A DNA stretch of 64,000 bases from a bacterium (GCA_965261595.1 CBDHDG010000006.1:1312001-1376000), one strand, 5' to 3'. Positions 8,116 through 39,880 are shown, counted from the stretch's first letter. A program made the numbers and translations. Notes: generated by a model not told the origin, from the letters alone.

Positions 8116-8150
8116 CCTGGGGCGAGCGCATCGACATCAAGATGGCGTGA
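8116..8150 (+). pseudogene. Extreme C-terminus of a probable DUF2201/VWA-like protein
   Basis: WGERIDIKMA-stop directly after the IS. Resembles the end of the VWA-like gene of AAA/DUF3150/VWA operons. Confidence 0.35.
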
Positions 8151-8341: not shown

Positions 8342-8584
8342 ATGACCGATACCAACATCACGGAGGAGCACCGACGGGCCTTCTCGGCCCTGACCAGTGG
8401 CGACTGCCGGAACTTCGCGCTTTTTTCCTGCTTCTGTGACGGCCGGCCCACGGCGGCCATCGCCGCGGTGACCGTCCACCCGCCTGCCCACGAAGACGGC
8501 GAGGCGGAATACCGCGTCAGCCCGCTGTTCATCAGCCTCACGCCGGACATGATATTAACCGACCATGACGGGCGCGAGGCATGA
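8342..8584 (+). CDS. Small hypothetical protein (DUF6117-like)
   Basis: GGAGG RBS. NFALFSCFCDGRPTAAIAAV...PLF. ATGA overlap with next gene. Confidence 0.7.
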   Translation: MTDTNITEEHRRAFSALTSGDCRNFALFSCFCDGRPTAAIAAVTVHPPAHEDGEAEYRVSPLFISLTPDMILTDHDGREA

Positions 8585-9432: not shown

Positions 9433-9922
9433 TACCGCCGTGACCGTGCGCGCCGCCCGCATCCTGATCGAACGCGATCCGGGTCCCGGTGACCGGCTCG
9501 ACGCCTTTCTGTTGCTCACCGGCCAGGAGTATCTGTGGCGTCGGGACCGCCCCGGCTCCGACTTCGGCGAGGCGGTCCGCATGTACGAGGCCGCGGCCGG
9601 CCGGCGCATCCCGAGGCCCGCGTCGCTCCCCTTCTTCGGCGCGGTCAAGCGGCGGCGCATCGAGCGTCGCCGGGAAGTCGCCGTCTGGCTCGCGGGCCGC
9701 TTCCTCGACTGGCTGTACAGCCCCGATGGCCGGGGCCGCGCTTCCGACACGGACTGGCGTCCGGGCCCCAGCCTGTCGATTGGCCTGGGGCTGCCGTACG
9801 AAACGGCCCTGAAGGAGCCTCCTCGTTCGCTTCCCCATGCCGAGCGTCGCGTGACCGAGCTCGCCCTCGCGAACGTCGTCGACCCCGGCGTTGAGGGTGT
9901 CGCCCGTGAGCCGCACGGTTGA
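9422..9922 (+). CDS. Hypothetical protein
   Basis: AAGGAG RBS, overlaps previous stop, high-GC3 codons. Confidence 0.65.
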   Translation: MSLDTAVTVRAARILIERDPGPGDRLDAFLLLTGQEYLWRRDRPGSDFGEAVRMYEAAAGRRIPRPASLPFFGAVKRRRIERRREVAVWLAGRFLDWLYSPDGRGRASDTDWRPGPSLSIGLGLPYETALKEPPRSLPHAERRVTELALANVVDPGVEGVAREPHG

Positions 9923-10106
9923 CGGCACACCGGCGCCGCCACCGCTTCCCCGCCGAGCGACCTGCCGCCCGGCATCCTTCCGCAATCCGCCTCGCGGTCC
10001 CGCGTGCGCGCCCCCGCGAGGCCGAGCCGGGCCGGGACCGGTCGCAGGACGGACGGCCGGAGCGGCCGTTCCCCGCGCCATCCACTTTCATCCATGGGAG
10101 ATACGC

Positions 10107-12425: not shown

Positions 12426-12517
12426 ACCGTCCCCGCATTCCCATCCCTCATGCGCCCCGCCGGTCCCGCGCCGGCGGGGCGCTTTTCGTTTCGGCCGCTT
12501 CCACGGAGACTATCGCC

Positions 12518-14266
12518 ATGAACGACATTTCCGGCACGGGGCCCCGGCCCTGGCTTGGCCGCATCCGGGCGAAGATCCATGACAGCGCCCTCCAGCGCGT
12601 CACCCGGCTCTGGGCCGCCACAACCATCGACACCCTCGTGGAGAGTTTCCAGAATGGCAGAAGGGCCGGCGCGACGCGCGTGTCGGTGATCGTTACCGAT
12701 CCCGCCGGTGAGCCATCCGACAACAGCGCCCTGACCGTCACCGTCACCGATGACGGCATCGGCATCGCCGATCCTGCCGTGCTCCTGAGTCTTGGCGAGA
12801 CCGGATGGGACGGGGAGCTTGCCGGCCGAGAGGACGCGGCCGGGATGGGATTCGCCAGCCATGCCCGCCAAGGCTGCCGCATCGTCTCGCGTCCCCGCTC
12901 CGACAGTGGACAACCCGCCCCCGGCTGGCGCGTCGATCTCACGCCCGCGCATTTCCTGGGGGAGGAGGAGGCGACCGTCGTCCCGGAGGACGGCGGGCCT
13001 TGGCCCCACGGCACGGCCGTCAGCTTCACGGCCTCGGGCGACCGCGATTCGATCCGCCGGGCGGTCGAAGCCGCGGCCCGCCATTATCCGCTCCCGGTCA
13101 CACTTGACGGGGAGACCGTGCCCCGCCGGGCCTTTCTCGACGGGGCCGTTGACGCCGAGCCTTGGCGGGGACTCGTCTTCGGCGTGTTCGTGGGCCGCAG
13201 CCGCGGCTGCAGCGAGCCCGACCTCAACTTCCACGGCCTCACCCTGCCGGTGCGCCTGCCCACGGTCGATCCCGTGACCGGCCAGACCTGGTCGGTCCGC
13301 GCCGAGGTTGCGAGCTGTCCCGAACTGGAGCTCGTCCTGCCGGCCCGCAAGGAGGCCGTCGAGACCCCTTTCCTGAACGAGACGCGAGAGGCCGCGCGGC
13401 TCGCCGTCTACCGGGTCATGGCGTCGACCGAGGCGCCGCCGCGCATCGCCTTCGAGGACTGGACCCGGGCGCGGGAAGCCGGGATCGAGCTTCCGATACC
13501 GTCCCCCCAACTGCGTCCCTGGCGTCCCTGCATCGCCGATATCGACGATTGGCGCGAGGCGCCCGCTCTCGCATCCGTATCCAACGACGCGCTCGTGATG
13601 CACGTGGATCCCGAACCGCCCGAATCCCAGGCCCTCTGGCGCGCCGCCGAACATGGCGGGATAGCCCCACGGCTCTTCGAGGCCGACCGCCGGCTTGACG
13701 GCTACGGCTGGTACGACGCGCTTCCCCGCGTCACCGATGTCCGCACCGAGATCGTGACCGGCGGCGAGGCCCGTCCGCTGGAGGACTACCGGACTCCGTC
13801 AGAAGGATCCAGCCCCATCGAGCCGCCTCCACGGCCGGATTGGATCCGCATTTGCCTCGATGTCGAGGGCGTGAACGGCAAGACCAAGACCCTCGATCTC
13901 GACGCCGATCTCGCATTTTCCGGAGAAGCCTGGGTCTGGCTTCCCGATGCGAAGCCGCTGGTCACGGCCGAGAGCGCCCTTGAGCCCGCCGAACTGGCCG
14001 AGCTGCTGCGCGCCGCCTACTTCTCTCCGTCGGATGAAGCGGATTCGGACAGTTGGGAGACCCAGCGCCTGCGCTTCGACGAAGAGGCCATGCACATAGC
14101 CGTGAAGCTCCTTTGCTCGGCGGACGAGGCCCGCCGGACATCCATCGCCGAAGCGGTCAGGCGCGAGCTGTTCTGGCTCATCCCCCGGGACCGCGAGGTC
14201 ACCATTGCCGTGCGCGGGAGGGAGGTCAGCGTCGATCTCGGCGCCGCCAGGGAGACTGCGGGATGA
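12518..14266 (+). CDS. GHKL (HATPase_c) ATP-binding protein
   Basis: ESFQNGRRAGA, VTDDGIGI, EDAAGMG, GTAVSF. Confidence 0.85.
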   Translation: MNDISGTGPRPWLGRIRAKIHDSALQRVTRLWAATTIDTLVESFQNGRRAGATRVSVIVTDPAGEPSDNSALTVTVTDDGIGIADPAVLLSLGETGWDGELAGREDAAGMGFASHARQGCRIVSRPRSDSGQPAPGWRVDLTPAHFLGEEEATVVPEDGGPWPHGTAVSFTASGDRDSIRRAVEAAARHYPLPVTLDGETVPRRAFLDGAVDAEPWRGLVFGVFVGRSRGCSEPDLNFHGLTLPVRLPTVDPVTGQTWSVRAEVASCPELELVLPARKEAVETPFLNETREAARLAVYRVMASTEAPPRIAFEDWTRAREAGIELPIPSPQLRPWRPCIADIDDWREAPALASVSNDALVMHVDPEPPESQALWRAAEHGGIAPRLFEADRRLDGYGWYDALPRVTDVRTEIVTGGEARPLEDYRTPSEGSSPIEPPPRPDWIRICLDVEGVNGKTKTLDLDADLAFSGEAWVWLPDAKPLVTAESALEPAELAELLRAAYFSPSDEADSDSWETQRLRFDEEAMHIAVKLLCSADEARRTSIAEAVRRELFWLIPRDREVTIAVRGREVSVDLGAARETAG

Positions 14267-14742
14267 AGAAGCCATACACGGTCCAGTGCGCCCATGCGGC
14301 CTATTACGGCAACATCGTCACCGTCGAGGCCGACACCCTGGACAAGGCGATCCAGGAAGCCGACGGCGATGCGGACGGCTGGCGTTCCATGGACGATGCC
14401 GGCCCGACCTTCGTCGTCGAAGTCCGCGAGGGAACCCACCTCGATCCCCTGGATCGCGAGACCCCGGCGCTTCCCATCCCCGACCGATTCACCGAGCAGG
14501 GCGAGCCGCCGGTGGTCACCCTGATTGATCCCGGTCAGCCAGGCGGCGGCGCCATCGAGGTTTCCCGGGGCCGGGTTCTGCTTTGCTTCACGACCCGGAA
14601 CGGAACGGTCACGGGCGAGCTTTCCGATCCGCCCCATCCCCCGGCCAACCACCCCCTCGTCGTCATCCGGCGCCGCGCCGACGGCGCGCCCGACGTCACC
14701 GTGACCGAGGGCCGGGCCCGGGTCCGCATCCTCGACCCCTGA
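14263..14742 (+). CDS. Hypothetical protein
   Basis: ATGA overlap with previous gene, GGGAG RBS. Confidence 0.7.
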   Translation: MKKPYTVQCAHAAYYGNIVTVEADTLDKAIQEADGDADGWRSMDDAGPTFVVEVREGTHLDPLDRETPALPIPDRFTEQGEPPVVTLIDPGQPGGGAIEVSRGRVLLCFTTRNGTVTGELSDPPHPPANHPLVVIRRRADGAPDVTVTEGRARVRILDP

Positions 14743-14905
14743 CCCCGGCTTCCCGCCGCCGACCGGACCGCCCGTCCGCGCCGTCCTCCAACCATCGCCC
14801 ACAGTCCGTTTCGTACCGCCCGGAGCCGATTGCCGGCGGTGCGGAGCAACCAAGACGCGGAAGCGGCCTCCGCTTCCGCTCCCTCATCTCCGGGAGACAC
14901 GTTCC

Positions 14906-15295
14906 ATGGAACTCATGACCAAAAAGCAGCGCGAAAAACTGCTCGCCAACGGCGCCGACCGCGGGGCCGACCACGTGCCCGTGGTCAAGCTCTTCAACCC
15001 CTGCGGAGCGGGAACGTGGATCGTCACGGAGCTGGATCCCGAGGATCCCTCCGTGGCTTTCGGACTCGCGGATCTCGGCTTCGGCTTTCCCGAGCTGGGC
15101 AGTTTCAGTCTCGAAGAACTGGAAGCCTTCCGGGGCCCGTTCGGCCTCGGGATCGAGCGTGACCTTCATTTCGAGGGCAAGTACGCGATTTCCACCTATG
15201 CCGAAGCCGCCCGGGCCGCCGGCCATATCGTCGAGTACGGGCCTGAACTCGAGGCCGCCGCGTACCGCCGCACCCACGCGGCAGCCGGCGCCTGA
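14906..15295 (+). CDS. DUF2958 family protein
   Basis: PVVKLFNPCGAGTW..TELDP...FGLADLGFGFPELGSFSLEEL...IERDLHF. Confidence 0.92.
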   Translation: MELMTKKQREKLLANGADRGADHVPVVKLFNPCGAGTWIVTELDPEDPSVAFGLADLGFGFPELGSFSLEELEAFRGPFGLGIERDLHFEGKYAISTYAEAARAAGHIVEYGPELEAAAYRRTHAAAGA

Positions 15296-15453
15296 CCCTG
15301 GCCTCCCGTCGCCAGCCACACCGGGATTCAGCGGCGACGCGCCTTGCGTCTCTATGAGACGAGCCTGGCCCGGCCGGGTCGATCCGTGAGGCCCGGGGGC
15401 GTTTCCCCCCCGCCAGCCCCCGACTTCCAAGACTTCCGAGGAGAAGACCCCCC

Positions 15454-18400
15454 ATGCCCCACGCCCTGACGGCGGCGGAGGGCGAGCGTGCGAGTGCTCG
15501 TCCATACGTCCCCCGGTCCATCCCGTCCATACCCACGGCCGCGCTCTTCACCGCCGCCCAGGCCCTGTGGCCTGTACTGACAGCCGGCCGGCCTCTCGAC
15601 GCGGCCGCCCTTCGTGGGGCCATGACCCAGGCCTTCGGGGCCACCGACGCCGAGGGGGCCTGGGTCTGGAAGGACGCCTACGAGGCCGCCGAAGCGGCCG
15701 TCGTGCTCTTCCTGAAGTGCTACGGCCGGGCCATGCGCCGCCGGGCCGGAGCCGGCGGCCCGCCCGCCATGCTGGCCCTGCTGCAAAAGATCGCGGCCCT
15801 GGAGCCCTCCCACACGAAGCGATCCGAGTCCCAGGTCCGGCTCCAGCAGTTCTCCACGCCCCTGGGCCTCGCCTATGCGGCCTTGCAGGCGGCCGCCATC
15901 CGGCCCGGCGACATCGTGCTCGAACCCAGCGCCGGGACCGGGATCCTCGCCGTCATGGCCGAGTGCGCCCTCGGAACCGGCGGCGAAGGCGCGCTCCATC
16001 TGAACGAGATCGCCGGGACCCGGGCCGGCCTCCTGTCCCGGCTCTTCCCCAAGGCCTCGGTGACCGGGTTCAACGCCGAGGCCATCGCCGACCGTCTCCC
16101 GGACGTCCGGCCGACCGTGGTGCTCATGAACCCGCCGTTCTCCGCGAGTCCGGGGGTGCATCGCATCCGCCATGACGCTGACCTGCGCCACCTTCGCTCG
16201 GCCTTCGCCATGCTGGGGCTTGGGGGCCGGCTCGTGGCCGTCACCTCGGCGGGCTGCATGCCCGGGGACAGGGTCTGGAAGGACGCCTTCGAGCGTCTCG
16301 ATCCCCCGGCCCGCGTCGTCTTCTCCATGGCCATTGACGGCCGGGCCTATGCCAGACGCGGGACCACCTTCGACACCCGCCTGACCGTGCTCGACCGGAG
16401 CGGGGACCGCGAGCATGCCGCCATCGATCCCGCGGCCCGGGCAAACAGCTCCGCCGAGCTCCTCGAAGCCGTCATGGCGGGCGTGCCGGCGCGCCTCGCC
16501 ACTGGCGCTGTCGAGATCCCGGACACAGCCGCTCCGCTCCGGGACCTCTTCGGCGACACGGCCCCGGTCAAGTCAAAAGAGCGCAAGACCACGGCCAAGC
16601 CCGCCCACCGGCCGGCCGAAGACAAGGACCGCCGTCACGACTGGGGGCCTGTGTCCGAGCTCGCGTATGCGACGGCCCCGGTCTCCGTTGATGCCCCCGC
16701 CGGCTCCGAGACCGCTACCGGCCCCTATGCGCCCTGGAAGCCGGGCATTGTCCATGTCCCGGGCGCCGTCGTCCATCCCACGCCCCTGGTCCAGTCCGCG
16801 GCCATGGCCGCCGTACCGCATCCCGGCCCGTCCTACCGCCCGATGCTGCCGGAGCGCGTGGTGACGGACGGCCTGCTCTCCGACGCCCAGATCGAGAGCG
16901 TCGTCCTGGCCGGCGAGGCCCACAACCGCCATCTCTCGGCCCGCTACCGCATCGGCGCCCAATGGGAGACCGTCCACCGCTGCAACGACGATGATGCCGG
17001 GGTCCGTACCGCCGGCGCGACCGAGGACGGCGAGGCGCTCTCCGAGACGGTGCGCTTCCGCCGCGGCTGGATGCTGGGCGACGGCACGGGATGCGGCAAG
17101 GGCAGGCAGGTCGCCGGGATCCTCCTCGACAACCGGCTCCGCGGAAGGAAGCGGGCCCTGTGGCTCTCGCAGTCCGACAAGCTCGTGGAGGACGCCCGCC
17201 GGGACTGGGCCGCCCTCGGGGGGAACGAGGACGATGTGATCCCCTTGGGCAAGTTCCGCCAGGGAGCGGAGATCCCGCTCCCGGAGGGCGTCCTGTTCGC
17301 GACCTACGCCACGCTGCGCTCGCCGGCCCGCCAGGGCAAGGCCTCGAGGCTCGAGCAGATCGTCTCCTGGCTCGCGGGGGGAACGGAACAAGACCAGCGT
17401 CACGCCTTCGACGGCGTGATCGTGTTCGACGAGGCCCACGCCATGGCCAACGCGGCCGGCTCCAAGGGAGCGCGCGGGGAGGTCAAGCCCTCGGCCCAGG
17501 GACGGGCCGGACTCAGGCTTCAGAACGCGCTGCCCGACGCCCGTGTTCTCTACGTCTCGGCCACGGGCGCCAGCACCGTGCCCGGCCTCTCCTACGCCGG
17601 ACGCCTCGGCCTCTGGGGAGCGGAGGAGACGCCCTTCGAGACCCGGGGGGATTTCGTGTCGGCCATGGAGGCTGGAGGCGTCGCCGCCATGGAGGTGGTC
17701 GCCAGGGACTTGAAAGCCCTCGGGCTCTACCAGGCCAGGGCACTGGCCTATGACGGGGTGGAGATCGACATCCTGCAGCACGCGCTTACGCCCGAGCAGC
17801 GGCGCATCTACGACGCCTATGCAGGCGCCTTCAAGGTGATCCACGCCAACCTCCAGGACGCGCTCGAGGCCACCGGCGTCATGCAGGGAGACTCGACGCT
17901 GAACAGGAACGCCAAGTCCGCGGCCCTGAGCGCCTTCGAGGGGGCGAAACAACGCTTTTTCGGCCACCTGCTGACCGGCATGAAGTGCCCGTCCCTGATC
18001 CGCGCCGTCGAGGCCGATCTCGATGCCGGCCGGTCGGCCGTGATCCAGCTTGTCTCCACGGGCGAGGCCCTGATGGAGCGCCGCATCGCCGAGATCCCCG
18101 CGTCCGAATGGGACGACCTCTCCATCGACCTCACGCCGAGGGAATACGTTCTGGACTTCCTGGCCCACGCCTTCCCGGCGCAGCTCCAGGAGCCCTTCAC
18201 CGACGAGGAAGGGTACCTCATGAGCCGGCCCGTGTTCGACACCGACGGCAACCCCGTGCTCTGCCAGGAGGCCCTGGCCAAACGCGAGGCCCTGATCGGG
18301 AAACTGGCCTCCCTTCCGCCCGTGCAGTCGGCCCTGGACCGGATCCTCCACCACTTCGGCCACGAGGCCGTGGCCGAGGTCACGGGCCGGTCCCGCCGGG

Positions 18401-19944
18401 TGCTCAGGATCGCGGACGGCCGGGGCGAGCGCCTGGCGCTGCGCAGCCGGCCCGCCTCCGCAAGCCTGACCGAGACCGCCGCCTTCATGGACGGGGAGAA
18501 GAAGATACTCGTCTTCTCCATGGCCGGCGGCACGGGACGCAGCTACCACGCGGATCTTGCATGCGGCAACACCGTGCGCCGGGTCCACTACCTGCTCGAG
18601 CCCGGCTGGCGGGCCGATCAGGCCATACAGGGGCTGGGCCGTACCCACAGGACCCACCAGGCGTCGGCCCCCGTGTTCCGGCCCGTGACCACGGACGTGA
18701 AGGGCGAGAGGCGGTTCATCGCCACCATCGCGAGAAGGCTCGACTCCCTCGGGGCCATCACCCGGGGCCAGCGGGACTCCCAGACCGCCATGGCCGGCGA
18801 TGACGCGGCGCTGTTCCGCGAGAGCGACAACCTGGAGAGCGCCTACGCCAAGGCGGCGTTGAGACGGTTCTACATTGCGCTGTGGCGCGGCCGCATACCG
18901 GGCTGGTCCCTCGGCCGCTTCGAGGAGGCCACCGGCCTCGCCCTCACCTGGGAGGGAGCGCTCAAGGACGACCTGCCGCCCATGTCCAGGTTCCTGAACC
19001 GCCTGCTGGCCCTCCCCATCGACGAGCAGAACGCGCTCTTCGCCGAGCTGGAGTGCCTCATCGCGGAGAACGTCGAGCAGGCGATCGAGGCCGGCGCCCA
19101 TGACATCGGCGTGGAGACCCTGCAGGCCGACTCGCTCGCGGTGGCCGGCCGGGAGACCCTCTACACCCACCCCGGGACCGGGGCCGCGACCGATCTCGTC
19201 GAGATCCTCCTCCGCGACCGGCTGGAGCCGACCCCGGCGGACGCGGCGCTCGAGATCGGGACCCAGGGCGGGGACAGCCGGCCTGGGCTCGTCGTCAACA
19301 GCCGCTCGGGACGAGGGGCCGTTGTCCTGCCCGCGCCGTCCAGGATGCTCGACGACGGCGGGGTGCAGGAGCGGGTGCGCCTCCTGCGGCCCACGGCCCG
19401 GGAAGCCATGGCCAGGGCCGAGCTCGAGGCCTCGAACTGGCGCAGGGCCTCGGAGGGGGAGTGGCGTTCCCGCTGGGAGGAGGAGATCGCCGGCCTGCCA
19501 ACCCATACCGAGTCCCGCTTCTGGCTCGTCACCGGGCTGCTCCTGCCGATCTGGGACCGGCTCGGAATGGAGAACATGCGCGTGCGCCGGCTGTTGACCG
19601 ACGCCGGCGAGGCGATGATCGGCCGCGTGCTCGACGCCGAACAGGTACGGGCCGCGCGCACCTCTTTCGGCCTTGCCGGCGGTCCCGGCATGACCCCCCT
19701 CGAGACCTTCGAGGCGGTCATGGGGCGAGGCGCGTCGTTCGGCCTCGCGAACGGCTGGCGTCTTGCGCGCCGGCGCATCATGGGGGCCGACCGCGTCGAG
19801 ATAGAGGGTCCCGTTGACGGCGACATCGCCGCGCTCAAGCGCATGGGGTGCATCGTCGAGATCGTCTCCTGGCGCTCACGCCTCTTCGTCCCCGACGCCG
19901 GCGTGCTCGAACGCGTCATCGAGCGCTGGCCCATCGCGGCCTGA
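15454..19944 (+). CDS. Strawberry notch-like SF2 helicase fused to DNA methyltransferase domain
   Basis: QQFSTP, VLEPSAGTG, MNPPF. LGDGTGCGKGRQ, FDEAH, SATGA, QGLGRTHR. Confidence 0.95.
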   Translation: MPHALTAAEGERASARPYVPRSIPSIPTAALFTAAQALWPVLTAGRPLDAAALRGAMTQAFGATDAEGAWVWKDAYEAAEAAVVLFLKCYGRAMRRRAGAGGPPAMLALLQKIAALEPSHTKRSESQVRLQQFSTPLGLAYAALQAAAIRPGDIVLEPSAGTGILAVMAECALGTGGEGALHLNEIAGTRAGLLSRLFPKASVTGFNAEAIADRLPDVRPTVVLMNPPFSASPGVHRIRHDADLRHLRSAFAMLGLGGRLVAVTSAGCMPGDRVWKDAFERLDPPARVVFSMAIDGRAYARRGTTFDTRLTVLDRSGDREHAAIDPAARANSSAELLEAVMAGVPARLATGAVEIPDTAAPLRDLFGDTAPVKSKERKTTAKPAHRPAEDKDRRHDWGPVSELAYATAPVSVDAPAGSETATGPYAPWKPGIVHVPGAVVHPTPLVQSAAMAAVPHPGPSYRPMLPERVVTDGLLSDAQIESVVLAGEAHNRHLSARYRIGAQWETVHRCNDDDAGVRTAGATEDGEALSETVRFRRGWMLGDGTGCGKGRQVAGILLDNRLRGRKRALWLSQSDKLVEDARRDWAALGGNEDDVIPLGKFRQGAEIPLPEGVLFATYATLRSPARQGKASRLEQIVSWLAGGTEQDQRHAFDGVIVFDEAHAMANAAGSKGARGEVKPSAQGRAGLRLQNALPDARVLYVSATGASTVPGLSYAGRLGLWGAEETPFETRGDFVSAMEAGGVAAMEVVARDLKALGLYQARALAYDGVEIDILQHALTPEQRRIYDAYAGAFKVIHANLQDALEATGVMQGDSTLNRNAKSAALSAFEGAKQRFFGHLLTGMKCPSLIRAVEADLDAGRSAVIQLVSTGEALMERRIAEIPASEWDDLSIDLTPREYVLDFLAHAFPAQLQEPFTDEEGYLMSRPVFDTDGNPVLCQEALAKREALIGKLASLPPVQSALDRILHHFGHEAVAEVTGRSRRVLRIADGRGERLALRSRPASASLTETAAFMDGEKKILVFSMAGGTGRSYHADLACGNTVRRVHYLLEPGWRADQAIQGLGRTHRTHQASAPVFRPVTTDVKGERRFIATIARRLDSLGAITRGQRDSQTAMAGDDAALFRESDNLESAYAKAALRRFYIALWRGRIPGWSLGRFEEATGLALTWEGALKDDLPPMSRFLNRLLALPIDEQNALFAELECLIAENVEQAIEAGAHDIGVETLQADSLAVAGRETLYTHPGTGAATDLVEILLRDRLEPTPADAALEIGTQGGDSRPGLVVNSRSGRGAVVLPAPSRMLDDGGVQERVRLLRPTAREAMARAELEASNWRRASEGEWRSRWEEEIAGLPTHTESRFWLVTGLLLPIWDRLGMENMRVRRLLTDAGEAMIGRVLDAEQVRAARTSFGLAGGPGMTPLETFEAVMGRGASFGLANGWRLARRRIMGADRVEIEGPVDGDIAALKRMGCIVEIVSWRSRLFVPDAGVLERVIERWPIAA

Positions 19945-20124
19945 GCCTGTCCGTACAGCCGGCCCGCCGTCCGCCCGCGGGGGGGGCCGTTCCACCGCCT
20001 TCATCCGTATCGCCGTCCGCCCGGATACGTATCGGCCCGGAGCCGTCTGGAACCCGTATGGCCGGGGGGGGGCCATCACCCACGCCCCCCGGCGCACCGC
20101 CGACACCTCACGGGAGACCCGAAC

Positions 20125-20394
20125 ATGACCGCGCACACCCTGCCGGACAACCCCGACTACGCCTTCTGTCCCGCCTATGACCTCGCCGACGAGCCGCAGC
20201 AGATCCGAATCGTCATCGACGGCATGGCGGGCTACGTCCCCACCGCCCTGGTCGCCCTCACCCTCGAGGACGCCGAGCGCATCTGCGACCGATTGAACGC
20301 TCGCCTCGGACTCTCGCGAAAGGACTGGACCGAACTCGCCGCACGGTCCATGCGCGCCGAGAACGGTGCACCGGACAACGAGACCGTGCACTGA
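20125..20394 (+). CDS. Hypothetical protein
   Basis: GGGAG RBS, 89 aa, backbone-like codon use. Confidence 0.7.
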   Translation: MTAHTLPDNPDYAFCPAYDLADEPQQIRIVIDGMAGYVPTALVALTLEDAERICDRLNARLGLSRKDWTELAARSMRAENGAPDNETVH

Positions 20395-20436
20395 GTCGCC
20401 CGCCATGCTGCGCAGCCGGCCCGACGTCCTCCGGCC

Positions 20437-20817
20437 TCAACCCCGCCGCTTGAGCCACCACCACGCCGCCCAGACCGGAAGGCTGAGCACCGCCGCGTAG
20501 ACGGCGATGGCGACCGGGCCGAGCAGTCCCGCCACCAGCGACGCCGCCACCGTGACGGCGCCGAGCCCGATCCCCGCCGTCCAGGCGGCGCGCCGGTAGC
20601 CCAGCCGCCACAGTCGCCGGCATCCCAGCGCCAGCGGCAGGCCGCACGGCGCCACCGGCACCAGCGACCCCGCCCACATCAGCGCCATCCACAGCCACAT
20701 CCCGGGCTCCATCTCCGGCGCGAAGCGCACCGCCGCCGTCGCGACCACTCCGGCGGGCAGCCACAGGAGCGCCAGCAGCCAGAAGCCGCGCCGCTTGATG
20801 AGGCCCTGGTCGTCCAT
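20437..20817 (-). CDS. Small multi-pass membrane protein
   Basis: About four hydrophobic Trp/Leu-rich segments. Confidence 0.65.
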   Translation of the reverse strand: MDDQGLIKRRGFWLLALLWLPAGVVATAAVRFAPEMEPGMWLWMALMWAGSLVPVAPCGLPLALGCRRLWRLGYRRAAWTAGIGLGAVTVAASLVAGLLGPVAIAVYAAVLSLPVWAAWWWLKRRG

Positions 20818-21078
20818 GCGCCTTATCCGACTCGAAACTCGCACCGCACGCAAGCCCGAGCGGGTCCGTGTTCGACAACAGCCGGGCGAGGGCGAAGACC
20901 GCGCAAGGTCGGCGAGCGGCTGCCGGCGTCCGTCGCGCCCTCTGAGCTCGCCCCGGGTCCCGTCACCGTCCTTCGAGTCAGAGGGAAGCAAGGGCCGGGC
21001 GAAGACCCGGCAGGGGAGAGGGAGACGGTCTCCCGGTCCCGATGCCGGGAACGGCAATCCCGGACAGGAGGCTAACCC

Positions 21079-21219
21079 ATGCTCGACCGTGACTTCGAAC
21101 CCGACATCCCGACCCATGACGAACTGCTCGCCGAGATCGGCCTCGACTCTTACACCATCCGCAGGATCCTCACCGAAGCGGTCCATGCCGACACCGGCGA
21201 AGGAGAGGCGCTTTCATAG
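21079..21219 (+). CDS. Small acidic protein (46 aa)
   Basis: AGGAGG RBS. MLDRDFEPDIPTHDELLAEIGLDSYTIRRILTEAV... Confidence 0.55.
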   Translation: MLDRDFEPDIPTHDELLAEIGLDSYTIRRILTEAVHADTGEGEALS

Positions 21220-21307
21220 GGTGAACCGAAGGGGCCGGAGAGAGAGGCTCTCCCCCCTTTTCCGTCACCCGTTGTCATCCACACCCTCACGCAGAAGGAG
21301 AACCGTC

Positions 21308-21733
21308 ATGGCATTCGGACTCAATCGCGCTGAAGTGATCGGCCGCCTCGGCGCCGACGTCACCGTCAACCACCTCACCAGCGGCGGACGCGTGGCCAAC
21401 CTGTCGATCGCCACCGACGAGGGCTACATCGACAAGCAGACCGGCGATCGGGTCGACAAGACCGAGTGGCACCGGGTCGTGACCTTCCAGCCCGGACTGG
21501 TCGACATGTTCGAAAAGCACGCGACGAAGGGCCGGCTGGTCTATGTGGCGGGCAAGCTCCAGACCCGTCGCTGGAAGAAGGACGACGAGGACTCCGACCG
21601 GTTCTCCACCGAGATCCTGTTGGTTCCGGGCGGGCGCGTGCAGTTCCTCGACAAGCCCAACGGCAACGGCGCGCCGGTCGCGGAGGCGGAGACGCCGTCC
21701 GCCGAAGCGCCCATCGACGACATCCCGTTCTGA
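21308..21733 (+). CDS. ssb: Single-stranded DNA-binding protein
   Basis: LNRAEVIGRLGAD, TEWHRVV, KGRLVYVAGKLQTRRW, C-terminal DDIPF. Confidence 0.97.
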   Translation: MAFGLNRAEVIGRLGADVTVNHLTSGGRVANLSIATDEGYIDKQTGDRVDKTEWHRVVTFQPGLVDMFEKHATKGRLVYVAGKLQTRRWKKDDEDSDRFSTEILLVPGGRVQFLDKPNGNGAPVAEAETPSAEAPIDDIPF

Positions 21734-22983: not shown

Positions 22984-23664
22984 ATGGCGCACATCGTCAA
23001 TCTCAGGCATGCGCCCGCCCTGCGGGCGGCGCTCGACGGCAAGGCGGAGCACGGCGGGACCGTGCGGATCGACCGCCGCTCTCAATGGGGAAACCGGTTC
23101 CGCATCGGCCCGGACGGACCGCGCGATGAAGTGATCGCGCGCTATCGCGCCGATCTCTGGCGCCGCGTTCGCGCCGCCGAGGTCGGGTTCGACGAACTCG
23201 CCGCCCTTCACGGAAAGCCGCTGGCCTGCCGGTGCGCGCCGCTGCCCTGCCATGGGCAGGTCCTCGCCCGCGCCGCGCGGCATGGGCGGCCTCCGTTCTG
23301 GCGGAACGGAGGGGAGAGTGAAGCGGGAGAGAGGGCGAACGCCGCGAGGAGGGAGAGAGAGGGCCCCGGGCATCGGCAACACGGAAGGAGAACCGAAATG
23401 CAATCCGTTACCTCGAGGAGCATCGCCCGTACGAGTCGAGGCTCTACCACGATGGCAATCTCGCCTGCGAGGTTGCGGAGCGACTCGTCGATACGCGTCC
23501 GTTGCGGTGACGGGCCATGCCGTCTTCGGGCGATCCCTTCGGGCCGGGCTCCCCGCTGCAATCTCCGCTCCGCTCCGATTTGCGCTTCTATCCCTATCGC
23601 CTCCGCTCGCTGGCGCTCGCTGCGCGCTCCTGTACCTCTTATAAGTGACTCTGCGCTTCAATAG
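22984..23664 (+). CDS. DUF4326 domain protein (C-terminal half probably read-through)
   Basis: IDRRSQWGNRF, LHGKPLACRCAPLPCHGQVL. Recognisable domain ends near 23290. Confidence 0.75.
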   Translation: MAHIVNLRHAPALRAALDGKAEHGGTVRIDRRSQWGNRFRIGPDGPRDEVIARYRADLWRRVRAAEVGFDELAALHGKPLACRCAPLPCHGQVLARAARHGRPPFWRNGGESEAGERANAARREREGPGHRQHGRRTEMQSVTSRSIARTSRGSTTMAISPARLRSDSSIRVRCGDGPCRLRAIPSGRAPRCNLRSAPICASIPIASARWRSLRAPVPLISDSALQ

Positions 23665-23830
23665 CACGGAATTGGGCAGGCCGCCGGGAGCAACCCTTGC
23701 GCGCTCAGTGCCATCAGCACCTCAAGCGGACAGGTGCCCCGGCGGTCCTGCCACGACGGATGCCCCGTGAGGAGTTAGCGCCTTGAGCGCCAAGTACAGG
23801 AGTCGGCAGGCGTCGCGGCAGGCCCAGCCA
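23665..23830 (+). ncRNA. IS110 bridge RNA (target-binding and donor-binding loops); ends approximate
   Basis: Two stem/internal-loop modules. Guides TGCGCGCTC (23698-706), CAAGCGGA (23723-30), GTGAGGAGT (23767-75) and GTACAGGA (23794-801) match the target and donor half-sites. Confidence 0.85.
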
Positions 23831-23859
23831 CCATCGCACAGATTAGGGAGGGAGACGAA

Positions 23860-25230
23860 TTGGCAGATCTCAAGTGGTTTGTCGGAATCGATTGGGGGTC
23901 CCGAATCCACCAGGCCTGCATCCTCGACGCGAACGGCGACGTTCGAGCCGAGCATGCGTTCGCCCACGGCGGCGCCGGTTTCGCCGCGTTGACGGACTGG
24001 ATTCTGTCCGGCACCGAGGAGGCGCCGGCGGACCAGGTCGGCGTGGCCATCGAGACGCCTCGCGGACCCGTGGTCGAAACGCTCCTCGGATGCGGCTTCG
24101 CCGTTCACTCCATCAACCCCAGGCAACTGGACCGCTTCCGCGACCGTTACTCGCACGCCGGGGCGAAGGACGATCGTCGCGACGCCCTGGTGCTGGCGTC
24201 GGCGCTACGCACCGACCCGCACCGGCTGCTGCGGGTCAAACCAACGGCTCCCGCAATCGTCGAGCTGCGCGAGTGGTCCCGCATCGTCGAGAGCCTGACG
24301 CGCGAGCGGGTGCGCCTGTCCAATCGCATGTGCGACCAGCTCTGGCGTTACTATCCCGAGTTCATCAATGTCGTGGAGGACTTCAATGTTCACTGGGCAC
24401 TGGCCCTTTGGAACCGCGTGCCGACGCCCGCGGCCGTGCGCGGCGTCCGGCTTTCCACGCTCGAGAAGCTTCTGAAAAAGCACCGCGTTCGACGTATCAC
24501 CGCCGAGGAGCTCCGCGACCAGCTTACCGCGCGCGCCATCGACATCGACCCCAGCGCAATACGCGCCGCCGAGACCCACGCCCGCATCATTGCGAAGCAG
24601 CTTGCGCTCGTGAACCAGCAGTTGACAGAGGCCAACTCACGTCTCGAGGCGCTCGTCACCCAGCTCGCCGAAGCCGCCCCCGATCCGGACGAAAGTTCCG
24701 AACCGGGGCAACACAAAGAACAGCGTGACGTGGCTATCCTGCGTTCTCTGCCCGGAGTCGGCACGGTTGTCCTCGCCACGCTGTTCGCAGAGGCCGATGA
24801 CGCTCTGCAGCGCCGAGACTACCACGCGCTGCGCTGCTTGTGCGGCGTGGCGCCCGTCACCAAGCGCTCCGGCAAGAGCATGCGCGTCTCCCTCAGACGC
24901 GCCGCGCATCGTCGCCTGCGCAATGCCACCTACCATTGGGCACGCGTGGCCATGCAGAAGGACCCCGTCTGCAAAGCCAAGTACCAGGTGCTTCGCTCCC
25001 GAGGCCACGGCCACGCCCGTTCGCTGCGCTCCGTCGCAGACCGCCTCCTCAATGTCGCCTGCGCCATGCTTCGCGACCAGACACTGTTCGACCCGCAGCA
25101 CGCCAGCGCTGCAGCAGGTTCACACCGCGAAGCGGTCAATGGAATCTCAATTGAATCATCTGTTGTTGGTCCTGTGGAGCTTGTGGGCGAGAGGGGCGAG
25201 AGTGTGGGCAACGCGGTGGGCAACGCGTAA
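23860..25230 (+). CDS. IS110 recombinase/transposase
   Basis: FVGIDWG, AIETPRG, AKDDRRDA (DEDD), SLPGVG, APVTKRSGKS. Confidence 0.96.
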   Translation: MADLKWFVGIDWGSRIHQACILDANGDVRAEHAFAHGGAGFAALTDWILSGTEEAPADQVGVAIETPRGPVVETLLGCGFAVHSINPRQLDRFRDRYSHAGAKDDRRDALVLASALRTDPHRLLRVKPTAPAIVELREWSRIVESLTRERVRLSNRMCDQLWRYYPEFINVVEDFNVHWALALWNRVPTPAAVRGVRLSTLEKLLKKHRVRRITAEELRDQLTARAIDIDPSAIRAAETHARIIAKQLALVNQQLTEANSRLEALVTQLAEAAPDPDESSEPGQHKEQRDVAILRSLPGVGTVVLATLFAEADDALQRRDYHALRCLCGVAPVTKRSGKSMRVSLRRAAHRRLRNATYHWARVAMQKDPVCKAKYQVLRSRGHGHARSLRSVADRLLNVACAMLRDQTLFDPQHASAAAGSHREAVNGISIESSVVGPVELVGERGESVGNAVGNA

Positions 25231-25305
25231 GCGTTGTCCACGGACTTGTCCATACGGCCCGCAGGGCTCGCGCCGGTCCTCAGGACTCGTCCACAAATCC
25301 ATAGG
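25171..25305. repeat. Nested palindromic element in IS110 3' end
   Basis: CCTGTGGAGCTTGTGG...CCACAAATCCATAGG arms. Inner GTGGGCAACGC-GTAA-GCGTTGTCCAC. Confidence 0.7.
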
Positions 25306-25735
25306 ACTACCCCCTTGCAAGTTGGTGAGGAGTCCGCTTGCCGGGCCGGCGCCCGAGACCCGCGTCTCAATCCCGGAACCGCACAGGGCGTCCGGGACAG
25401 TGACAAACAATATCCCTCTCGACGTGATGGCCCATTGTCCCACACGTGCTCGCTGCGCCAACCCCGCCTCCGGCGGGGTCCTCCTCTTCGTTCCGGCCCT
25501 GGCTCGCAAGGCTACGGCGCTGAAGCGCCTAGGCGCGGCAAGAACCGCGACCGAGGCTCCGCGCTCCCTGCGGTCGCTTGTGCGCCCGCACCACTCGCGC
25601 TTCTCGCCGCGCCAAGCCTTGCGGCCACGGTGGCTTTGCAGCGCGCGCGTGGGCCACTCAACCATCACGTTCGGAGACTCTCTCCGCACAACGAACCATA
25701 ACGGTTCTCTACACTCAATCCATAAGGAGAGCATC

Positions 25736-31220: not shown

Positions 31221-32312
31221 TTACTGAAGGAAAAACCTAACCGGGACGAGGAATTCGATCCGGCTTTCGCGCATCTCAAGGGGTATCTTCGGTAGCGGCT
31301 GCGCCCGCTAGATCATCTTCCTTGCCTCCTCATCCAAACGCGAGTGACCCGAACTCTTTTCAATGCCGAAGGCGCTCACCTCGCCTCTGCGCGTCACCAC
31401 GAAGCGTAGAAGGACGACACCTTGCTCGCCGCGAAGCCTCGCGCGGCGCGGGTAGCGCTTGTGTTTCTCCAGCCATGCCTGGAGCCGTGTGTAGTACCCG
31501 GCCGCTGCTTCCGGCGCGCCGCCGTGGGGGGCGTATTCGCCGCTGCCAGCGTCGATTCGCGCAAGGGCTCCGATCCTGCCCCCGGCGCTTAGCATCGTCG
31601 GTGCCAGTGTGGCGACCTGTTCCACAATTGGGCGATCGTTTTTCGCCGCAGTCGGCCCAGGCTGTTGGTGCGCCGTATCGGTGAGCATTGGCGCCGATGC
31701 CGGCTTGGTCTGGGCCCGGGTGGACTCTGGCCGCGTGGGCAGTTCGGGCTGCGGCCTCGGTGTCGGCGGAACAACGATCTGGCGCGCCGTAACCTCTTCG
31801 CGCGGCTTTGCATAGACGAATTCCGTGCGCGGCGGCGGGGTGACCGTCTGGGTGAACGTTACCTTGCGGATCACCTGTTGTTCCTTCGTATTCGCGTCCG
31901 CAGCTTCGCAATTCTGCGACCGTCATCAAGAGTTGTACTTGCCGAGCGATCGTCACCGCCGACACGGTCTCGATCAACTCGGCAGGCACAGTTCGGTCCG
32001 GCTCAGCCAACACCGCCGTCAGCGGCCCGGCCTCGGGCGCGTTCGCGGCCGCTACATCTGCGGGTGTCTCGCTCAATGCCTCATCCGGCGCGACGGTCTG
32101 AGTTTCCGCTGGCCTGCGCACCGTCACGGCCGAGGCGGACTCGACCGACACGGCGGGCGCAGTCCGGACCGGCTCAGCCGACACCGCTGTCAGCGGCCTG
32201 GCCTCGTGCATGCGTGCGGCCGCTACATCTGCGGGTGTCTCGCTCAATGGCTCATCCGGCGCAACGGGCTGGGTTTCCACTGGCCTGCGCACCGTCACGG
32301 CCGAGGCGGACT
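31221..32312 (-). pseudogene. tonB: TonB-family energy transducer, truncated by IS3, with frameshift and internal TAG
   Basis: KRYPRRARLRGEQGVVLLRFVV...SSGHSRLDEEARKMI*RAQPLP...VPVRF. Confidence 0.85.
31960..32312. repeat. 171-bp (57-codon) tandem repeat in TonB linker
   Basis: GCTACATCTGCGGGTGTCTCGCTCAATG at 32051 and 32222. Confidence 0.85.
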
Positions 32313-32367
32313 TGGAGTTACCCCGTTTCAGTGGACACCTTCAGACTGTGGGGAGGAGGTGTTCAGA

Positions 32368-32681
32368 TGCCGAAAACTCATTCACCCTACGCGCCGGAGT
32401 ACCGGCGCCAGATGGTTGAGCTGGTTCGCTCGGGCCGTACGCCCGGGGAGCTGGCCCGGGAGTTCGAGTGTTCCGCTTCGGCGATTCGCAACTGGGTGCG
32501 CCAGGCCGACCGCGACGAGGGCCGTCGTGAGGACGGTCTGACAAGCTCAGAGCTCGAGGAGCTACGGCGGCTTCGTCGGGACAATCGTCAGCTTCACGAA
32601 GAACGCGAGATACTGGCAAAAGCTACGGCTTGGTTCGCTCGGGAGACCGGCTCGGTCCGGGCGAAGTCCTCGAGCTCGTGA
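32368..32681 (+). CDS. IS3 OrfA
   Basis: MPKTHSPYAPEYRRQMVELVRSG...EREILAKA. Confidence 0.9.
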
Positions 32682-33718
32682 AGGCGAATCAGGCCCATCA
32701 TCGGGTGGCCACGATGTGCCGGGTGCTGGGCGTCTCCCCCAGCGGGTACTACGCGTGGCGAGGCCGTGGGCGTTCTCCTCGTGCGAAGCGCGACGAGGTG
32801 TTGGGGGGCACGATACGGGCCATCCACGAGGCATCTGGTGGCACCTACGGGGCGCCTCGGGTTCATGCCGAGCTGATGGCCGGCGGCTGCCGGGTGAGCC
32901 GCAATCGGGTGGCTCGTCTGATGCGCGAGGCAGGGTTGGCCGGGGTGAGCCGACGCCGAGGCATGCGCACTACGCGCGTGGACCAGAGCCATTGTGTGGT
33001 CCCGGACCGGGTCGAACGCCAGTTCCAGGCCGATGGGCCGGACCGAATCTGGGTGGCCGACATCACCTACGTGCCGACCTGGGCGGGGTTCGTGTACCTG
33101 GCCATCGTGCTCGACGTGTTCAGCCGCCGGGTGGTGGGATGGTCCATGGCCCATCATCTTCGCACCGAACTGGTGCTCGGGGCGCTGAACATGGCGTTGG
33201 GACAGCGCCGCCCCCAAGGGGTCGTACATCACTCCGACCAGGGCTCGCAGTACACCTCGCTTGCCTTTGGGAAGCGGTGCCGGGAGATGGGGGTGGTTCC
33301 GTCGACCGGGTCGGCCGGGGATTGCTTCGACAACGCCATGGCCGAGAGCTTGTTCGCCACGCTGGAGTGCGAGCTCATCGACCGGCGTTCGTTCCGTACC
33401 CAGGCCGAAGCGCGCATGGCGATCTTCCAATTCATCGAAGGCTGGTACAACCCACGCCGTCGTCATTCGGCCCTGGGTTACCTCAGCCCCAACGACTTCG
33501 AACGCGCCGTGGCGAAGGAAACGCCACGTGCAGTGCGCAACGCTCATCGTCCGGCTCGAGCCGTCCCCGGTGCTTCCCGGAGCAGCGAGCCAAAGGTCAA
33601 GACATACCCCCCGGGGGCACCCTATCCATCGGATAGGGAGAAGACTTTACGTCCACCGGCTGTCGCCCACCTCAGGGCTGAGGACGACAGCCCTAAACTG
33701 TCCACTGAAACGGGGTAA
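32678..33718 (+). CDS. IS3 OrfB transposase
   Basis: YGAPRVHAEL, WVADITY, HHSDQGSQY, DNAMAES, WYNPRRRHSALGYLSP. Confidence 0.93.
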   Translation: MKANQAHHRVATMCRVLGVSPSGYYAWRGRGRSPRAKRDEVLGGTIRAIHEASGGTYGAPRVHAELMAGGCRVSRNRVARLMREAGLAGVSRRRGMRTTRVDQSHCVVPDRVERQFQADGPDRIWVADITYVPTWAGFVYLAIVLDVFSRRVVGWSMAHHLRTELVLGALNMALGQRRPQGVVHHSDQGSQYTSLAFGKRCREMGVVPSTGSAGDCFDNAMAESLFATLECELIDRRSFRTQAEARMAIFQFIEGWYNPRRRHSALGYLSPNDFERAVAKETPRAVRNAHRPARAVPGASRSSEPKVKTYPPGAPYPSDREKTLRPPAVAHLRAEDDSPKLSTETG

Positions 33719-33723
33719 CTCCA

Positions 33724-34673
33724 CCCGAGGGCCGGGCTCGTCTTCGCGCCCTGAGCCTTTGGCGGGAGAGCGGGAATGCGAAATGGGTTTGCAGCACATT
33801 TGGGGTGAGCCGGGCCACGCTGTACCGCTGGGGGAAGCGGTTTGACCCCCGAGACCTGCCGACCCTGCAGGAGCGCCCGCGCCGGCCGCGCCGGGTGAGG
33901 CCGCCCACGTGGTCGCCAGAGCTGGTGAAGGCGGTCTTGCAGCTTCGGGAGCAGTGCCCCCGGTGGGGAAAGGCCAAGCTGGCGGTCCTGCTTCGACGCG
34001 AGGGGTTGGTGACCTCGGTCTCGACGGTGGGCCGCATCCTGGCCGATCTCAAGCGCCGGCGACTGCTGGTCGAGCCGAGGGGCAAGGTGGTGAGCGCGAA
34101 GCGGCGTCGGGCTCGGCGGCCTTACGCCACGCGCAAGCCCAAGGGCTATGTGCCCGGCCTTCCCGGAGACTTGGTCCAGGTGGACACCCTCGAGCTTTCC
34201 CCCCTTGCCGGGGTGAGGTTGAAGCAATTCACCGCCCGGGACATGGTCTCGCGCTGGGACGTGATGGAGGTCTTCTCGTGCGCCACGGCCCTTTGCGCCC
34301 GGCGGTTTTTGGACACCCTTCAGGCGCGCGCTCCGTTCCCGCTGCGGGCGATTCAGGTGGACGGGGGCTCGGAGTTCCGGGCGGTGTTCGAGGCGCGTGC
34401 GCGGAGCGGGAGATTTTGCTCTTTGAGCTGCCGCCCCGCTCGCCCAAGCTCAACGGCCGTGTGGAGCGAGCCAACAGGACCCATACGGAGGAGTTCTACG
34501 AGGTGTACGAACTCCCCTGGACGGTGGCCTCGCTCAACGTCCGCCTTCGCGAGTGGGAGCAAGTCCATAACCACATTCGACCCCACTGGGCCCTGGACTA
34601 CCTGACGCCCGCCCAGGTCCTGGAGACATTCAAAAAAACGGCCCCGGTGTCTCATATGCCTTGAACCCATACA
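33724..34673 (+). mobile_element. IS481-like element, 5'-truncated by IS3, frameshift near 34395
   Basis: Near-identical to 45151-46239. Right end TGTCTCATATGCCTTGAACCCATACA. Confidence 0.88.
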
Positions 34674-39051: not shown

Positions 39052-39880
39052 TCAGGCTTGGAGATCCGGGCTGGCTGGTGCCGTCTCAGGATCGGGGCAA
39101 ACTGCGTATGCGCTTAGGTTCATCGGTCCGGTGGCGCTCGACGCGATCAATATCTGATTCTCCTCGGACCGTCCGACTCGATAGATGACGAATCGGCCAT
39201 GGTCGTCGGTACGGATCATGGCGATCGAGTTGCCAGGGGCGGTCTTCTCTCCGGGAAGCGCCGGCTCGAGCTCGCGAAATGCACTCGCGGACATCATGAA
39301 TCCGCCTTCAATTGGACCGGCGACTTCCGGAAACAGCGTGCGTTGAACGGCGGTGTTGAGTTCCTGAACAATGCCCGTTCCAAGCGGGATGACGGCTTCC
39401 CCCTCGACGCTGTCGGTGTGCTCGATGAGGTTCCGCATCTGGCGCACTTTCAGGAAATGCGCCGCGCGGAATTCCTCCCAGAACCCGTGCTGCATGCGTT
39501 CGACCTTGTTGATGAGCTCTCCGGCCTTCAGGAGGCCGAGGCATGCTGCATCCAGGAGGGTTTCCTCCTCGACGGCGTCCGTGCAGTCCTCGGCACGGCG
39601 GCAGTAGCGGGTAGTCTTGGCCGTCCATTGCTTCAGATCGCGAAGGCGTCCTGCAGGCGCTTCAGGGAGTCGCCGCTTTCTCTTTCGCGCCAACGACGCG
39701 TGTGAATTCTCTCGGCTACAGTCCTGAGACTTGCCGCGACCGCCTTGTCGATTTCGACGAAGCGCTGCGTCATCCACGGTCGGCTTGCGCCTTTGCCCTG
39801 CAGCTTGGCGAACAGCTTCTGCTGCGCCAGGTAGCCCTTCCTGACCGAGTCGAGTAGACCACGGTTCTTGTCCCAGTCGG
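39052..39880 (-). pseudogene. HEPN (DUF86-like) domain protein lacking its own 5' end, frameshift near 39640
   Basis: DAACLGLLKAGELINKV...MRNLIEH (RxxxxH motif). Confidence 0.6.

Follow-up and report, generated by a model that had tools for sequence, protein, structure and literature searches.

A predicted bridge RNA in the left end of an IS110-group insertion sequence carries guides that match the element's own target and donor

Does the mobile element at this locus carry, in its own left end, the RNA that would direct it to its insertion site? The locus lies in a stretch of bacterial DNA of 64,000 nucleotides (nt) (GCA_965261595.1 CBDHDG010000006.1:1312001-1376000), which we call the window and in which positions are counted from the first letter. 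It contains an IS110-group insertion sequence (IS) of 1705 bp at 23631-25335, made up of a 229-nt left end, a recombinase gene and a 105-nt right end. An initial annotation, made from this DNA alone, had proposed an IS110 element with a bridge RNA whose guides all match its own target and donor. The family domains of the encoded protein, an RNA scaffold conserved among relatives and covariation between guides and targets support that proposal, and we put the probability that this is an intact IS110-group element moving by bridge-RNA-guided recombination at roughly 0.9. The element is intact and was probably inserted recently.

The boundaries of the element can be read from its two junctions. 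The left junction (23621-23635) reads TGCGCGCT-CC/TGTAC and the right junction (25325-25340) reads GTGAGGAGT-CC/GCTTG, with the dinucleotide CC present at both (23629-30 and 25334-35) and no further duplication of the target. Excision of 23631-25335 in silico yields TGCGCGCTCC+GCTTG, the restored target, while joining the two ends yields GTGAGGAGTCC+TGTAC, the donor. Both junctions therefore read as the initial annotation had described them, and all of the strings that it quoted were found where it had placed them. The left end (23631-23859) is longer than the right end (25231-25335), and a repeat search of the window reported no terminal inverted repeats for the element. The element and its four half-sites are as follows.

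23631..25335, plus strand: whole IS110-group insertion sequence (junction sequences and homology of the ends to relatives)
23621..23630, plus strand: left target half TGCGCGCT with a copy of the CC core (read directly; 23621-23629 is identical to the left target guide at 23698-23706)
23631..23635, plus strand: right donor half TGTAC, the start of the left end (complement of the right donor guide GTACA, 23794-23798)
25325..25335, plus strand: left donor half GTGAGGAGT with the copy of the CC core at the right junction (same sense as the left donor guide)
25336..25340, plus strand: right target half GCTTG (complementary to the right target guide)

Four segments of the left end, together with short handshake guides, correspond to these half-sites.

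23698..23706, plus strand: left target guide (LTG) TGCGCGCTC, equal to the left flank (8 nt and the first core C)
23723..23729, plus strand: right target guide (RTG) CAAGC+GG, the complement of core CC and GCTTG in the target top strand
23730..23731, plus strand: handshake guide AC of the target loop, complementary to donor GT immediately ahead of the core
23767..23775, plus strand: left donor guide (LDG) GTGAGGAGT, in the sense of the right IS end at 25325-25333
23794..23800, plus strand: right donor guide (RDG) GTACA+GG, the complement of core CC and TGTAC
23801..23801, plus strand: handshake guide A of the donor loop, complementary to target T immediately ahead of the core

All four guide segments are exact in the window, as had been claimed. 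The LTG has the same sense as the target top strand and so would pair with the bottom strand. The right guides had been described as 8 nt long: the segments are indeed exact over that length, with CAAGCGGA at 23723-23730 being the complement of TCC+GCTTG and GTACAGGA at 23794-23801 that of TCC+TGTAC, but each is actually composed of 5 nt, two core bases and one handshake base. To gauge chance matches, the 229-nt left end was subjected to 50,000 mononucleotide shuffles, among which TGCGCGCTC occurred in 85, CAAGCGGA in 343, GTGAGGAGT in 33 and GTACAGGA in 164. Chance falls far short of explaining how the four segments occur together, each at its proper place in the order and in the loops. One proposal of the initial annotation did not hold, namely that a CGCTCCGCT-type motif is targeted: the window contains no repeated motif of this type and no other site within 2 mismatches of the target 15-mer, and sites with 3 mismatches number 2, compared to 5.5 expected by chance.

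The guides are placed within a predicted RNA that has two stem-loops with large internal loops, both recovered by RNAfold. In this fold the two target guides lie on opposite sides of loop 1, the two donor guides likewise in loop 2, and a small 5' hairpin stands ahead of both.

23650..23670, plus strand: 5' stem-loop, present in the minimum-energy and the centroid structure alike (RNAfold)
23675..23752, plus strand: target-binding stem-loop with outer stem, internal loop and inner hairpin at 23708-23720 (RNAfold, covariation and covariance model)
23754..23816, plus strand: donor-binding stem-loop with outer stems, internal loop and inner hairpin at 23778-23790 (RNAfold, covariation and covariance model)

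The outer stem of loop 1 pairs GGCAGGCCGCCGGG (23675-88) with CCCCGGCGG-T-CCTGCC (23737-52), and its inner hairpin is GTGC/GCAC (23708-11/23717-20). Loop 2 has the outer stems CGACG/CGTCG (23754-58/23811-15) and TGCC/GGCA (23761-64/23805-08) and the inner hairpin GCGC/GCGC (23778-81/23787-90). The stems and inner hairpins that had been named for both loops are thus all present. The GC content of the RNA is 70%. A 5' stem-loop before two loops is also the published consensus (Durrant 2024; here and below, published work is cited for the passages that we compared). A scan of 23400-25600 against Rfam 15 at E <= 1 returned no family at its gathering score; snoU82P, ncS037 and mir-138 appeared below threshold on the minus strand, unrelated to the left-end RNA, and were dismissed as noise.

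The structure is conserved in relatives of the element. A scan of one genome per species gave 79 loci (L001-L079) with proteins 53-65% identical, from hosts that include Vicinamibacterales, several Alphaproteobacteria, Longimicrobiales, Candidatus Multivorans and others, many of the genomes being multi-copy. The scaffold was found upstream of the gene in 78 of the 79 related loci, representing 39 distinct RNA sequences. The consensus structure comprises 31 pairs, in which 96.9% of cells form standard pairs, compared to 31.6-41.7% when partners are slid by 1-3 columns. The fold and covariation analysis of homologous left ends that had been suggested as a check gave compensatory changes in 21 of the 31 pairs, compared to 2-8 with slid partners, and none of 500 shuffles reached the observed values. 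Nearly all of this covariation signal comes from the two outer stems: helix 1 has compensatory changes in 12 of 12 pairs and 96.7% of its cells paired, and helix 4 has them in 7 of 9 pairs. One helix of 2 bp, predicted within the RTG, is probably spurious. When 32 relatives, but not the window, were used to build a covariance model, the model matched 23678-23818 over its full length (115.7 bits, E 4.3e-23). A second match of the model, at 17194-17296 (16 bits, E 0.075), lies inside a strawberry-notch-like gene, is without the loops and was rejected. The single exception among the related loci, L039 (upstream of 3001), is also the only one without the target loop and most of the donor loop upstream; the last part of the scaffold alone aligns there, and the left end of this locus is possibly truncated or rearranged.

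To locate the ends of the relatives, 79 copies (78 loci and the window) were searched for the left end via the complement of the RDG and for the right end via the LDG. Left ends were located in 77 of the 79 copies, the other two (L029, L033) being cut by contig ends, and right ends were located within 500 nt in 71. The ends CC/TGTAC and AGT-CC/ are common to 69 related loci. TGTAC stands at the left end in 76 of 77 related copies, and the remaining one, L079, has TGTAT together with a matching ATACA guide. The right-junction core is CC in 70 of 71 copies. Since this end search relies on the guides themselves, the boundaries were checked independently by comparing copies in seven multi-copy groups. 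Inside the boundaries the copies are at least 99.5% identical, and in the most divergent pairs identity persists beyond them for 3-15 nt at the left boundary, counting the core, and for 1-6 nt at the right one; some pairs lie within longer shared repeats. L049 is the sole copy with TC after the right end, which could be a sequence variant or a misplaced boundary.

The two loops behave differently across the family. The donor-loop guides are almost constant, as GTGGGGAGT and GTACAGG, and the LDG variants GTGAACAGT (L041 group) and GTGGAGAGT (L067 group) are paired with likewise-changed, independently bounded right ends. The target-loop segments vary widely, tracking each element's own flanks; the 7-mers of relatives at the RTG position agree with the flanks on their right. 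To quantify this, the RTG was located by an inner-hairpin anchor, which missed L029 and L036; these two and the copies without both boundaries were left out of the guide statistics. The match was measured, free of register, as the longest run common to the loop segment and the rebuilt target over 29 distinct guide pairs. The mean longest run was 7.8 nt (left) and 6.6 nt (right) with the element's own target, compared to 4.5 and 4.6 nt with targets belonging to other elements. The observed total of 416 was reached in none of 20,000 permutations, the best of which scored 321. This demonstrates the covariation between guides and targets whose absence had been named beforehand as a refutation. The guides of the window share 9 and 8 nt with its own target, while the longest contiguous match to it among the guides of 28 other elements is 6 bases.

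These patterns also bear on whether the segments might instead be DNA-level subterminal repeats or protein-binding sites, with the protein choosing the target. That the donor-loop segments are nearly constant is what would be expected of protein-binding sites, but the loop-1 segments follow each element's own flanks, and a protein that is 54-65% identical could hardly re-specify its target base by base. The RNA of this element is a prediction; on the other side, compensatory changes preserve the structure in whose loops the segments lie, C and U interchange opposite G in a way that fits RNA pairing, and the same arrangement acts as RNA in IS621 (Durrant 2024) and in the IS1111/IS110 seekRNAs (PMC11187229). 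We therefore regard target choice by the protein as extremely improbable and retain guidance by a bridge RNA.

Two groups of relatives depart from the common pattern. Nine copies in one alphaproteobacterial genome (L050-L058) have the right target TCACC in common, matching their RTG, and agreement between their left flanks and the LTG is limited to a run of C's; these look like natural insertions recognised mainly via one target half. In four loci from Vicinamibacterales (L024, L026, L028, L030) the right end GTGGGGAGT-CC was found ~2.3 kb past the recombinase gene (about 2770-6570 per locus), followed by a TTTTCA flank that matches the element's own guide. These four elements seem to carry extra DNA and recall the cargo-bearing IS110 elements described in a 2026 preprint.

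The extent of the crossover core, given beforehand as CC/TCC, was also decided by comparison with the relatives. In the window TCC stands at both junctions and both 3' guides are complementary to TCC, which would favour a TCC core. In 54 distinct RNA/left-flank pairs, however, the donor keeps T before CC while the target has C in 47, A in 4, G in 2 and T in only 1, that of the window. Junction identity in the relatives stops at CC, and thus the core is CC. The bases next to the core behave as handshake bases. The target loop has GGA in 38 of 39 distinct RNAs (exception L048), so that the A after GG is constant in the scaffold and stands opposite the donor's constant T, the donor end AGT-CC being constant in the family; after GG the target loop has AC in 32 RNAs and AT or AG in the remainder. 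In the donor loop the base after GG varies with the target, being complementary to target base -1 in 53 of 54 pairs and in 36 of 37 distinct RNAs, with G:C, T:A, C:G and A:T all seen; the next donor-loop base lacks this correspondence (17 of 54 pairs). The same arrangement was described for IS621, where only the core-adjacent position covaries (Hiraizumi 2024). The CC part of the earlier claim is therefore retained and the TCC part dropped. We judge a TCC core very unlikely and read the core as the dinucleotide CC, with the T shared by the window's junctions a coincidence of its target. The element in the window is the only member of the clade with A at the donor-loop handshake position.

The LDG bases opposite the core are C or U in 39 of 39 RNAs at the first position and in 34 of 39 at the second. 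Only in pairing of the RNA type, with G-U wobble allowed, are both bases able to pair with a bottom-strand G, which fits pairing by RNA. At the second position four other distinct RNAs have A and one has G, and at least two such lineages are multi-copy (L067 group).

The protein is that expected of the family. The gene and its ribosome-binding site are located downstream of the RNA.

23860..25230, plus strand: recombinase gene, 456 amino acids (aa), TTG start (PF01548, PF02371 and NF033542)
23846..23854, plus strand: ribosome-binding site GGGAGGGAG before the TTG start (relatives have an AGGAGG-like site at equal distance before TTG, GTG or ATG)

The recombinase has a RuvC-like DEDD domain (D11, E65, D105, D108), a coiled-coil region, a Tnp domain with S337-G338 and a C-terminal tail of ~40 aa that is limited to some relatives (the L001 group and 77-85% identical proteins). 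PF01548 matches residues 8-166 at 2.4e-33, PF02371 matches at 2.4e-18, and with 169.3 bits the protein passes the cut-off of 140 set for the NCBIfam equivalog NF033542, 'IS110 family RNA-guided transposase'. A profile made from 22 relatives matched two solved recombinases, IS621 (8wt6, E 8.7e-16) and ISCro4 (9t56, E 2.2e-13), and placed D11, D105, D108 and S337-G338 opposite D11, D102, D105 and S241-G242 of IS621, the residues shown to be catalytic (Hiraizumi 2024). These residues and E65 are invariant across the 22 relatives, the reading frame is open and every catalytic residue is present, in agreement with the proposal that the DEDD and Ser residues are intact.

The recombinase is also a distinct ortholog, as had been suggested. 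In a protein search in which the 8000 candidates sharing most words were scored, 7806 proteins matched at E <= 0.001. The best match was a near-identical 471-aa form and the next was 85% identical; the best genome representative returned was 65% identical, and a single-sequence search matched IS621 at E 1.6e-7. The 471-aa form, with its longer N-terminus, was considered as the protein of the window and rejected: there is no start codon at that place in the window, and the extension would cross the donor-binding stem.

It has been proposed that the RNA regains its promoter through excision (Durrant 2024). A script was used to join the right and left ends into the circle junction, and a scan across the join gave candidate promoter hexamers in both ends.

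23633..23645, plus strand: candidate -10, TACCTC at 23633-38; alternative TATAAG at 23640-45 (joined-end scan)
25315..25327, plus strand: candidate -35, TTGCAA at 25315-20; alternative TTGGTG at 25322-27 (joined-end scan)

Among the relatives, a hexamer resembling TTGACA at 4-6 of its 6 positions begins 21 nt ahead of the end of the IS in 31 of 34 distinct end pairs, and in most relatives it is followed by 17 nt and then TACCYT at left-end bases 3-8. From these positions we infer a candidate promoter that would be completed only at the circle junction.

On our analysis, all of these features fit the published bridge-RNA model: the strand logic, the guide lengths, the inclusion of the core in the pairings, the left-end location, a variable loop 1 with a conserved loop 2, the handshake and, as a candidate, the split promoter. 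In the published strand logic each loop's 5' side pairs with the bottom strand over 8-9 nt and the 3' side with the top strand over 4-7 nt (Durrant 2024). The steps of circle formation, tetramer assembly, cutting, exchange and resolution are carried over from the work on IS621. The element would excise as a circle in which the right and left ends are joined at one CC, and this circle junction would be the donor site and would probably complete the promoter driving the RNA. A tetramer of RNA-bound recombinase would then pair loop 2 with the donor and loop 1 with the 15-bp target TGCGCGCT-CC-GCTTG. Ser337 and the DEDD site would cut the top strands beside CC; strands would be exchanged, with the handshake bases pairing with the swapped strands; and the Holliday junction would be resolved on the bottom strands, leaving the element flanked by CC on both sides, as it is in the window.

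Several observations weigh against this reading and were considered together. First, that the left-end RNA is made, bound and used by the recombinase is a prediction. Its single-sequence fold energy is unremarkable (z = -1.63, with 12 of 200 shuffles folding as well), so that the structure on its own is unconvincing. Second, the element is single-copy, no second copy being present in the 64-kb window, a near-identity search of the element against plasmids gave no match, and distant plasmid searches with both flanks found no empty allele, returning only toprim genes (60-90% identical) and DUF2493 genes (60-80% identical); the element's own boundaries thus rest on junction logic and homology to relatives. 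Third, 8 copies had no exact right end within 500 nt; later, five were found further downstream and one with a single mismatch, and two were found nowhere. Fourth, E65 corresponds to IS621 E60 by the I-E-T/A motif only, with the HMMER alignment offset by three residues. Fifth, a promoter scan found no sigma-70-like promoter in the integrated copy, and at the joined ends both hexamer pairs of the window are weak: the pair homologous to that of the relatives, TTGCAA/TACCTC, has 4/6 and 2/6 matches, and the alternative TTGGTG-17-TATAAG has 3/6 and 5/6. Lastly, the pairings at the core are imperfect. The LTG of the window meets the core with C then A and the LDG with U then A; the A at the second position leaves the second core base unpaired on both 5' guides, and thus two of the four core pairings preferred by IS621 are incomplete. 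The target and the donor also both have T at position -1, and an identical -1 base in target and donor is reported to interfere with handshake pairing in IS622 and is avoided in designs (Perry 2025 preprint).

Some of the same observations would be expected if this were a genuine IS110 element with a bridge RNA but a dead-end copy, inserted once and now inactive or nearly so. Possible causes would be the incomplete core pairings of the 5' guides and the identical T/T handshake bases, which would give no drive either way. The single copy in 64 kb, the failure to find a promoter in the integrated state, the second core base missed by LTG and LDG and the shared -1 base all point in this direction, as does the report that excision of IS621 is inefficient (PMC13626964). 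Against it stand an open reading frame with all catalytic residues, four perfectly matching guides and a scaffold at 115.7 bits against the relatives, none of which looks decayed; A or G at the second LDG core position also occurs in five other distinct RNAs, of which at least two lineages are multi-copy. We consider a dead-end copy unlikely, and an element that moves by bridge-RNA-guided recombination remains our preferred reading.

The surroundings of the element support the mobile genetic element backbone that had been proposed. A DUF4326 gene (22984 onward) stands on one side of the IS and a YspA/DUF2493 gene on the other. Upstream, 2352-21733 holds a run of genes typical of integrative/conjugative elements, with a tyrosine integrase, an IS3-type transposase pair, a PAPS-reductase-like protein, a ParB_N protein, DUF2958, a 1496-aa strawberry-notch-like helicase and an SSB; a DUF7146-Toprim gene is likewise upstream. 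The order strawberry-notch, toprim, DUF2493 is also found on a conjugative Methylorubrum plasmid. In the reading frame at 22984-23664 the DUF4326 domain ends at residue 95, but another 130 codons follow without a stop, the last 34 nt of the frame being part of the IS; the IS may have cut the end of a real gene or may sit in non-coding DNA of a GC-rich genome.

Other repeats and genes were observed elsewhere in the window. A perfect 91-nt inverted repeat (609-699 and 5527-5617) brackets the integrase region. Long inverted repeats of 839, 580, 522, 261 and 171 nt, with 95-99% complementarity, connect 32307-34655 with 45151-58863 and overlap transposase genes with rve and DDE domains (32630-33718, 44004-46191). 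They are probably copies of other insertion sequences, bracketing a segment with a large serine recombinase (39633-41465) and an HNH protein. A 208-aa open reading frame at 58832-59458 matches the Druantia DruA family (PF14236, 9.8e-31) over part of the profile only and may be a defence-gene fragment adjoining an insertion-sequence repeat.

How far does the element resemble systems already described? We compared it with IS621 and IS622 (ISCro4) as described in Durrant 2024, Hiraizumi 2024 and the Perry 2025 preprint. The window element shares with them a RuvC-like DEDD domain and a Tnp domain with a catalytic Ser-Gly; an RNA in the longer left end, in which a 5' stem-loop is followed by the target-binding and then the donor-binding loop; 9-nt 5' guides in top-strand sense and 3' guides complementary to the top strand (core and 5 nt); a 2-nt core at both junctions and a handshake base after the 3' guides; and promoter-like hexamers, weak in the window, split between the right and left ends. 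It differs from IS621 in that its recombinase has 456 aa rather than 326 aa, with remote similarity, its core is CC rather than CT, its left guides have 8 nt and one core base rather than 7 and 2, and its LDG meets the core with U or A where that of IS621 matches fully. Unlike IS621/IS622, it also has the same base before the core in target and donor, and its host element is GC-rich. These differences are of degree.

With its own clade (L001-L079) the element shares the RNA scaffold, the CC core, the TGTAC left end, a (G)GTGrrrAGT-CC right end and TTG/GTG starts behind an AGGAGG-like site. It differs from the clade in its own target guides and in its LDG GTGAGGAGT, which is common only to L079. 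The IS1111 group with its seekRNA (Siddiquee 2024) has the same type of transposase and likewise an RNA from a non-coding end with target-matching segments. In the IS1111 group, however, a long right end downstream of the gene holds the RNA, and the ends have longer subterminal inverted repeats, of 7-17 bp, whereas here the RNA is upstream, the left end is longer than the right (229 compared to 105 nt) and no such repeats were reported. Membership of the IS1111 group was rejected, given an RNA upstream of the gene and a right end of only 105 nt.

The element is thus an uncharacterised but ordinary member of a described RNA-guided system, the mechanism of which has been in print since 2024. It is possible, though on balance doubtful, that this clade, the element included, is a separate lineage of bridge recombinases reprogrammed in nature, marked by a protein of 410-490 aa, a CC core, a single-base handshake and wobble or partial pairing of the 5' guides with the core. 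Neither the clade nor a CC core is named in the published bridge-RNA passages compared, and no search was aimed at either. If there were such a lineage, it would work orthogonally to IS621/IS622, on GC-rich CC-core sites for which the enzymes of those systems have no preference, and the copy in the window would show that nature tolerates a target and a donor with identical pre-core bases.

The understanding of the mechanism is unchanged by these results. For annotation, they mean that the DNA of an uncharacterised IS110 element is enough to identify its RNA, all four guides, the core and the handshake bases, and that its landing site, TGCGCGCT-CC-GCTTG, is predictable. For the field, they provide a clade that is well documented, with 29 guide pairs found in nature, CC as its core and less strict pairing with the core by the 5' guides; if the enzyme is active, this could enlarge the set of sites that can be addressed.

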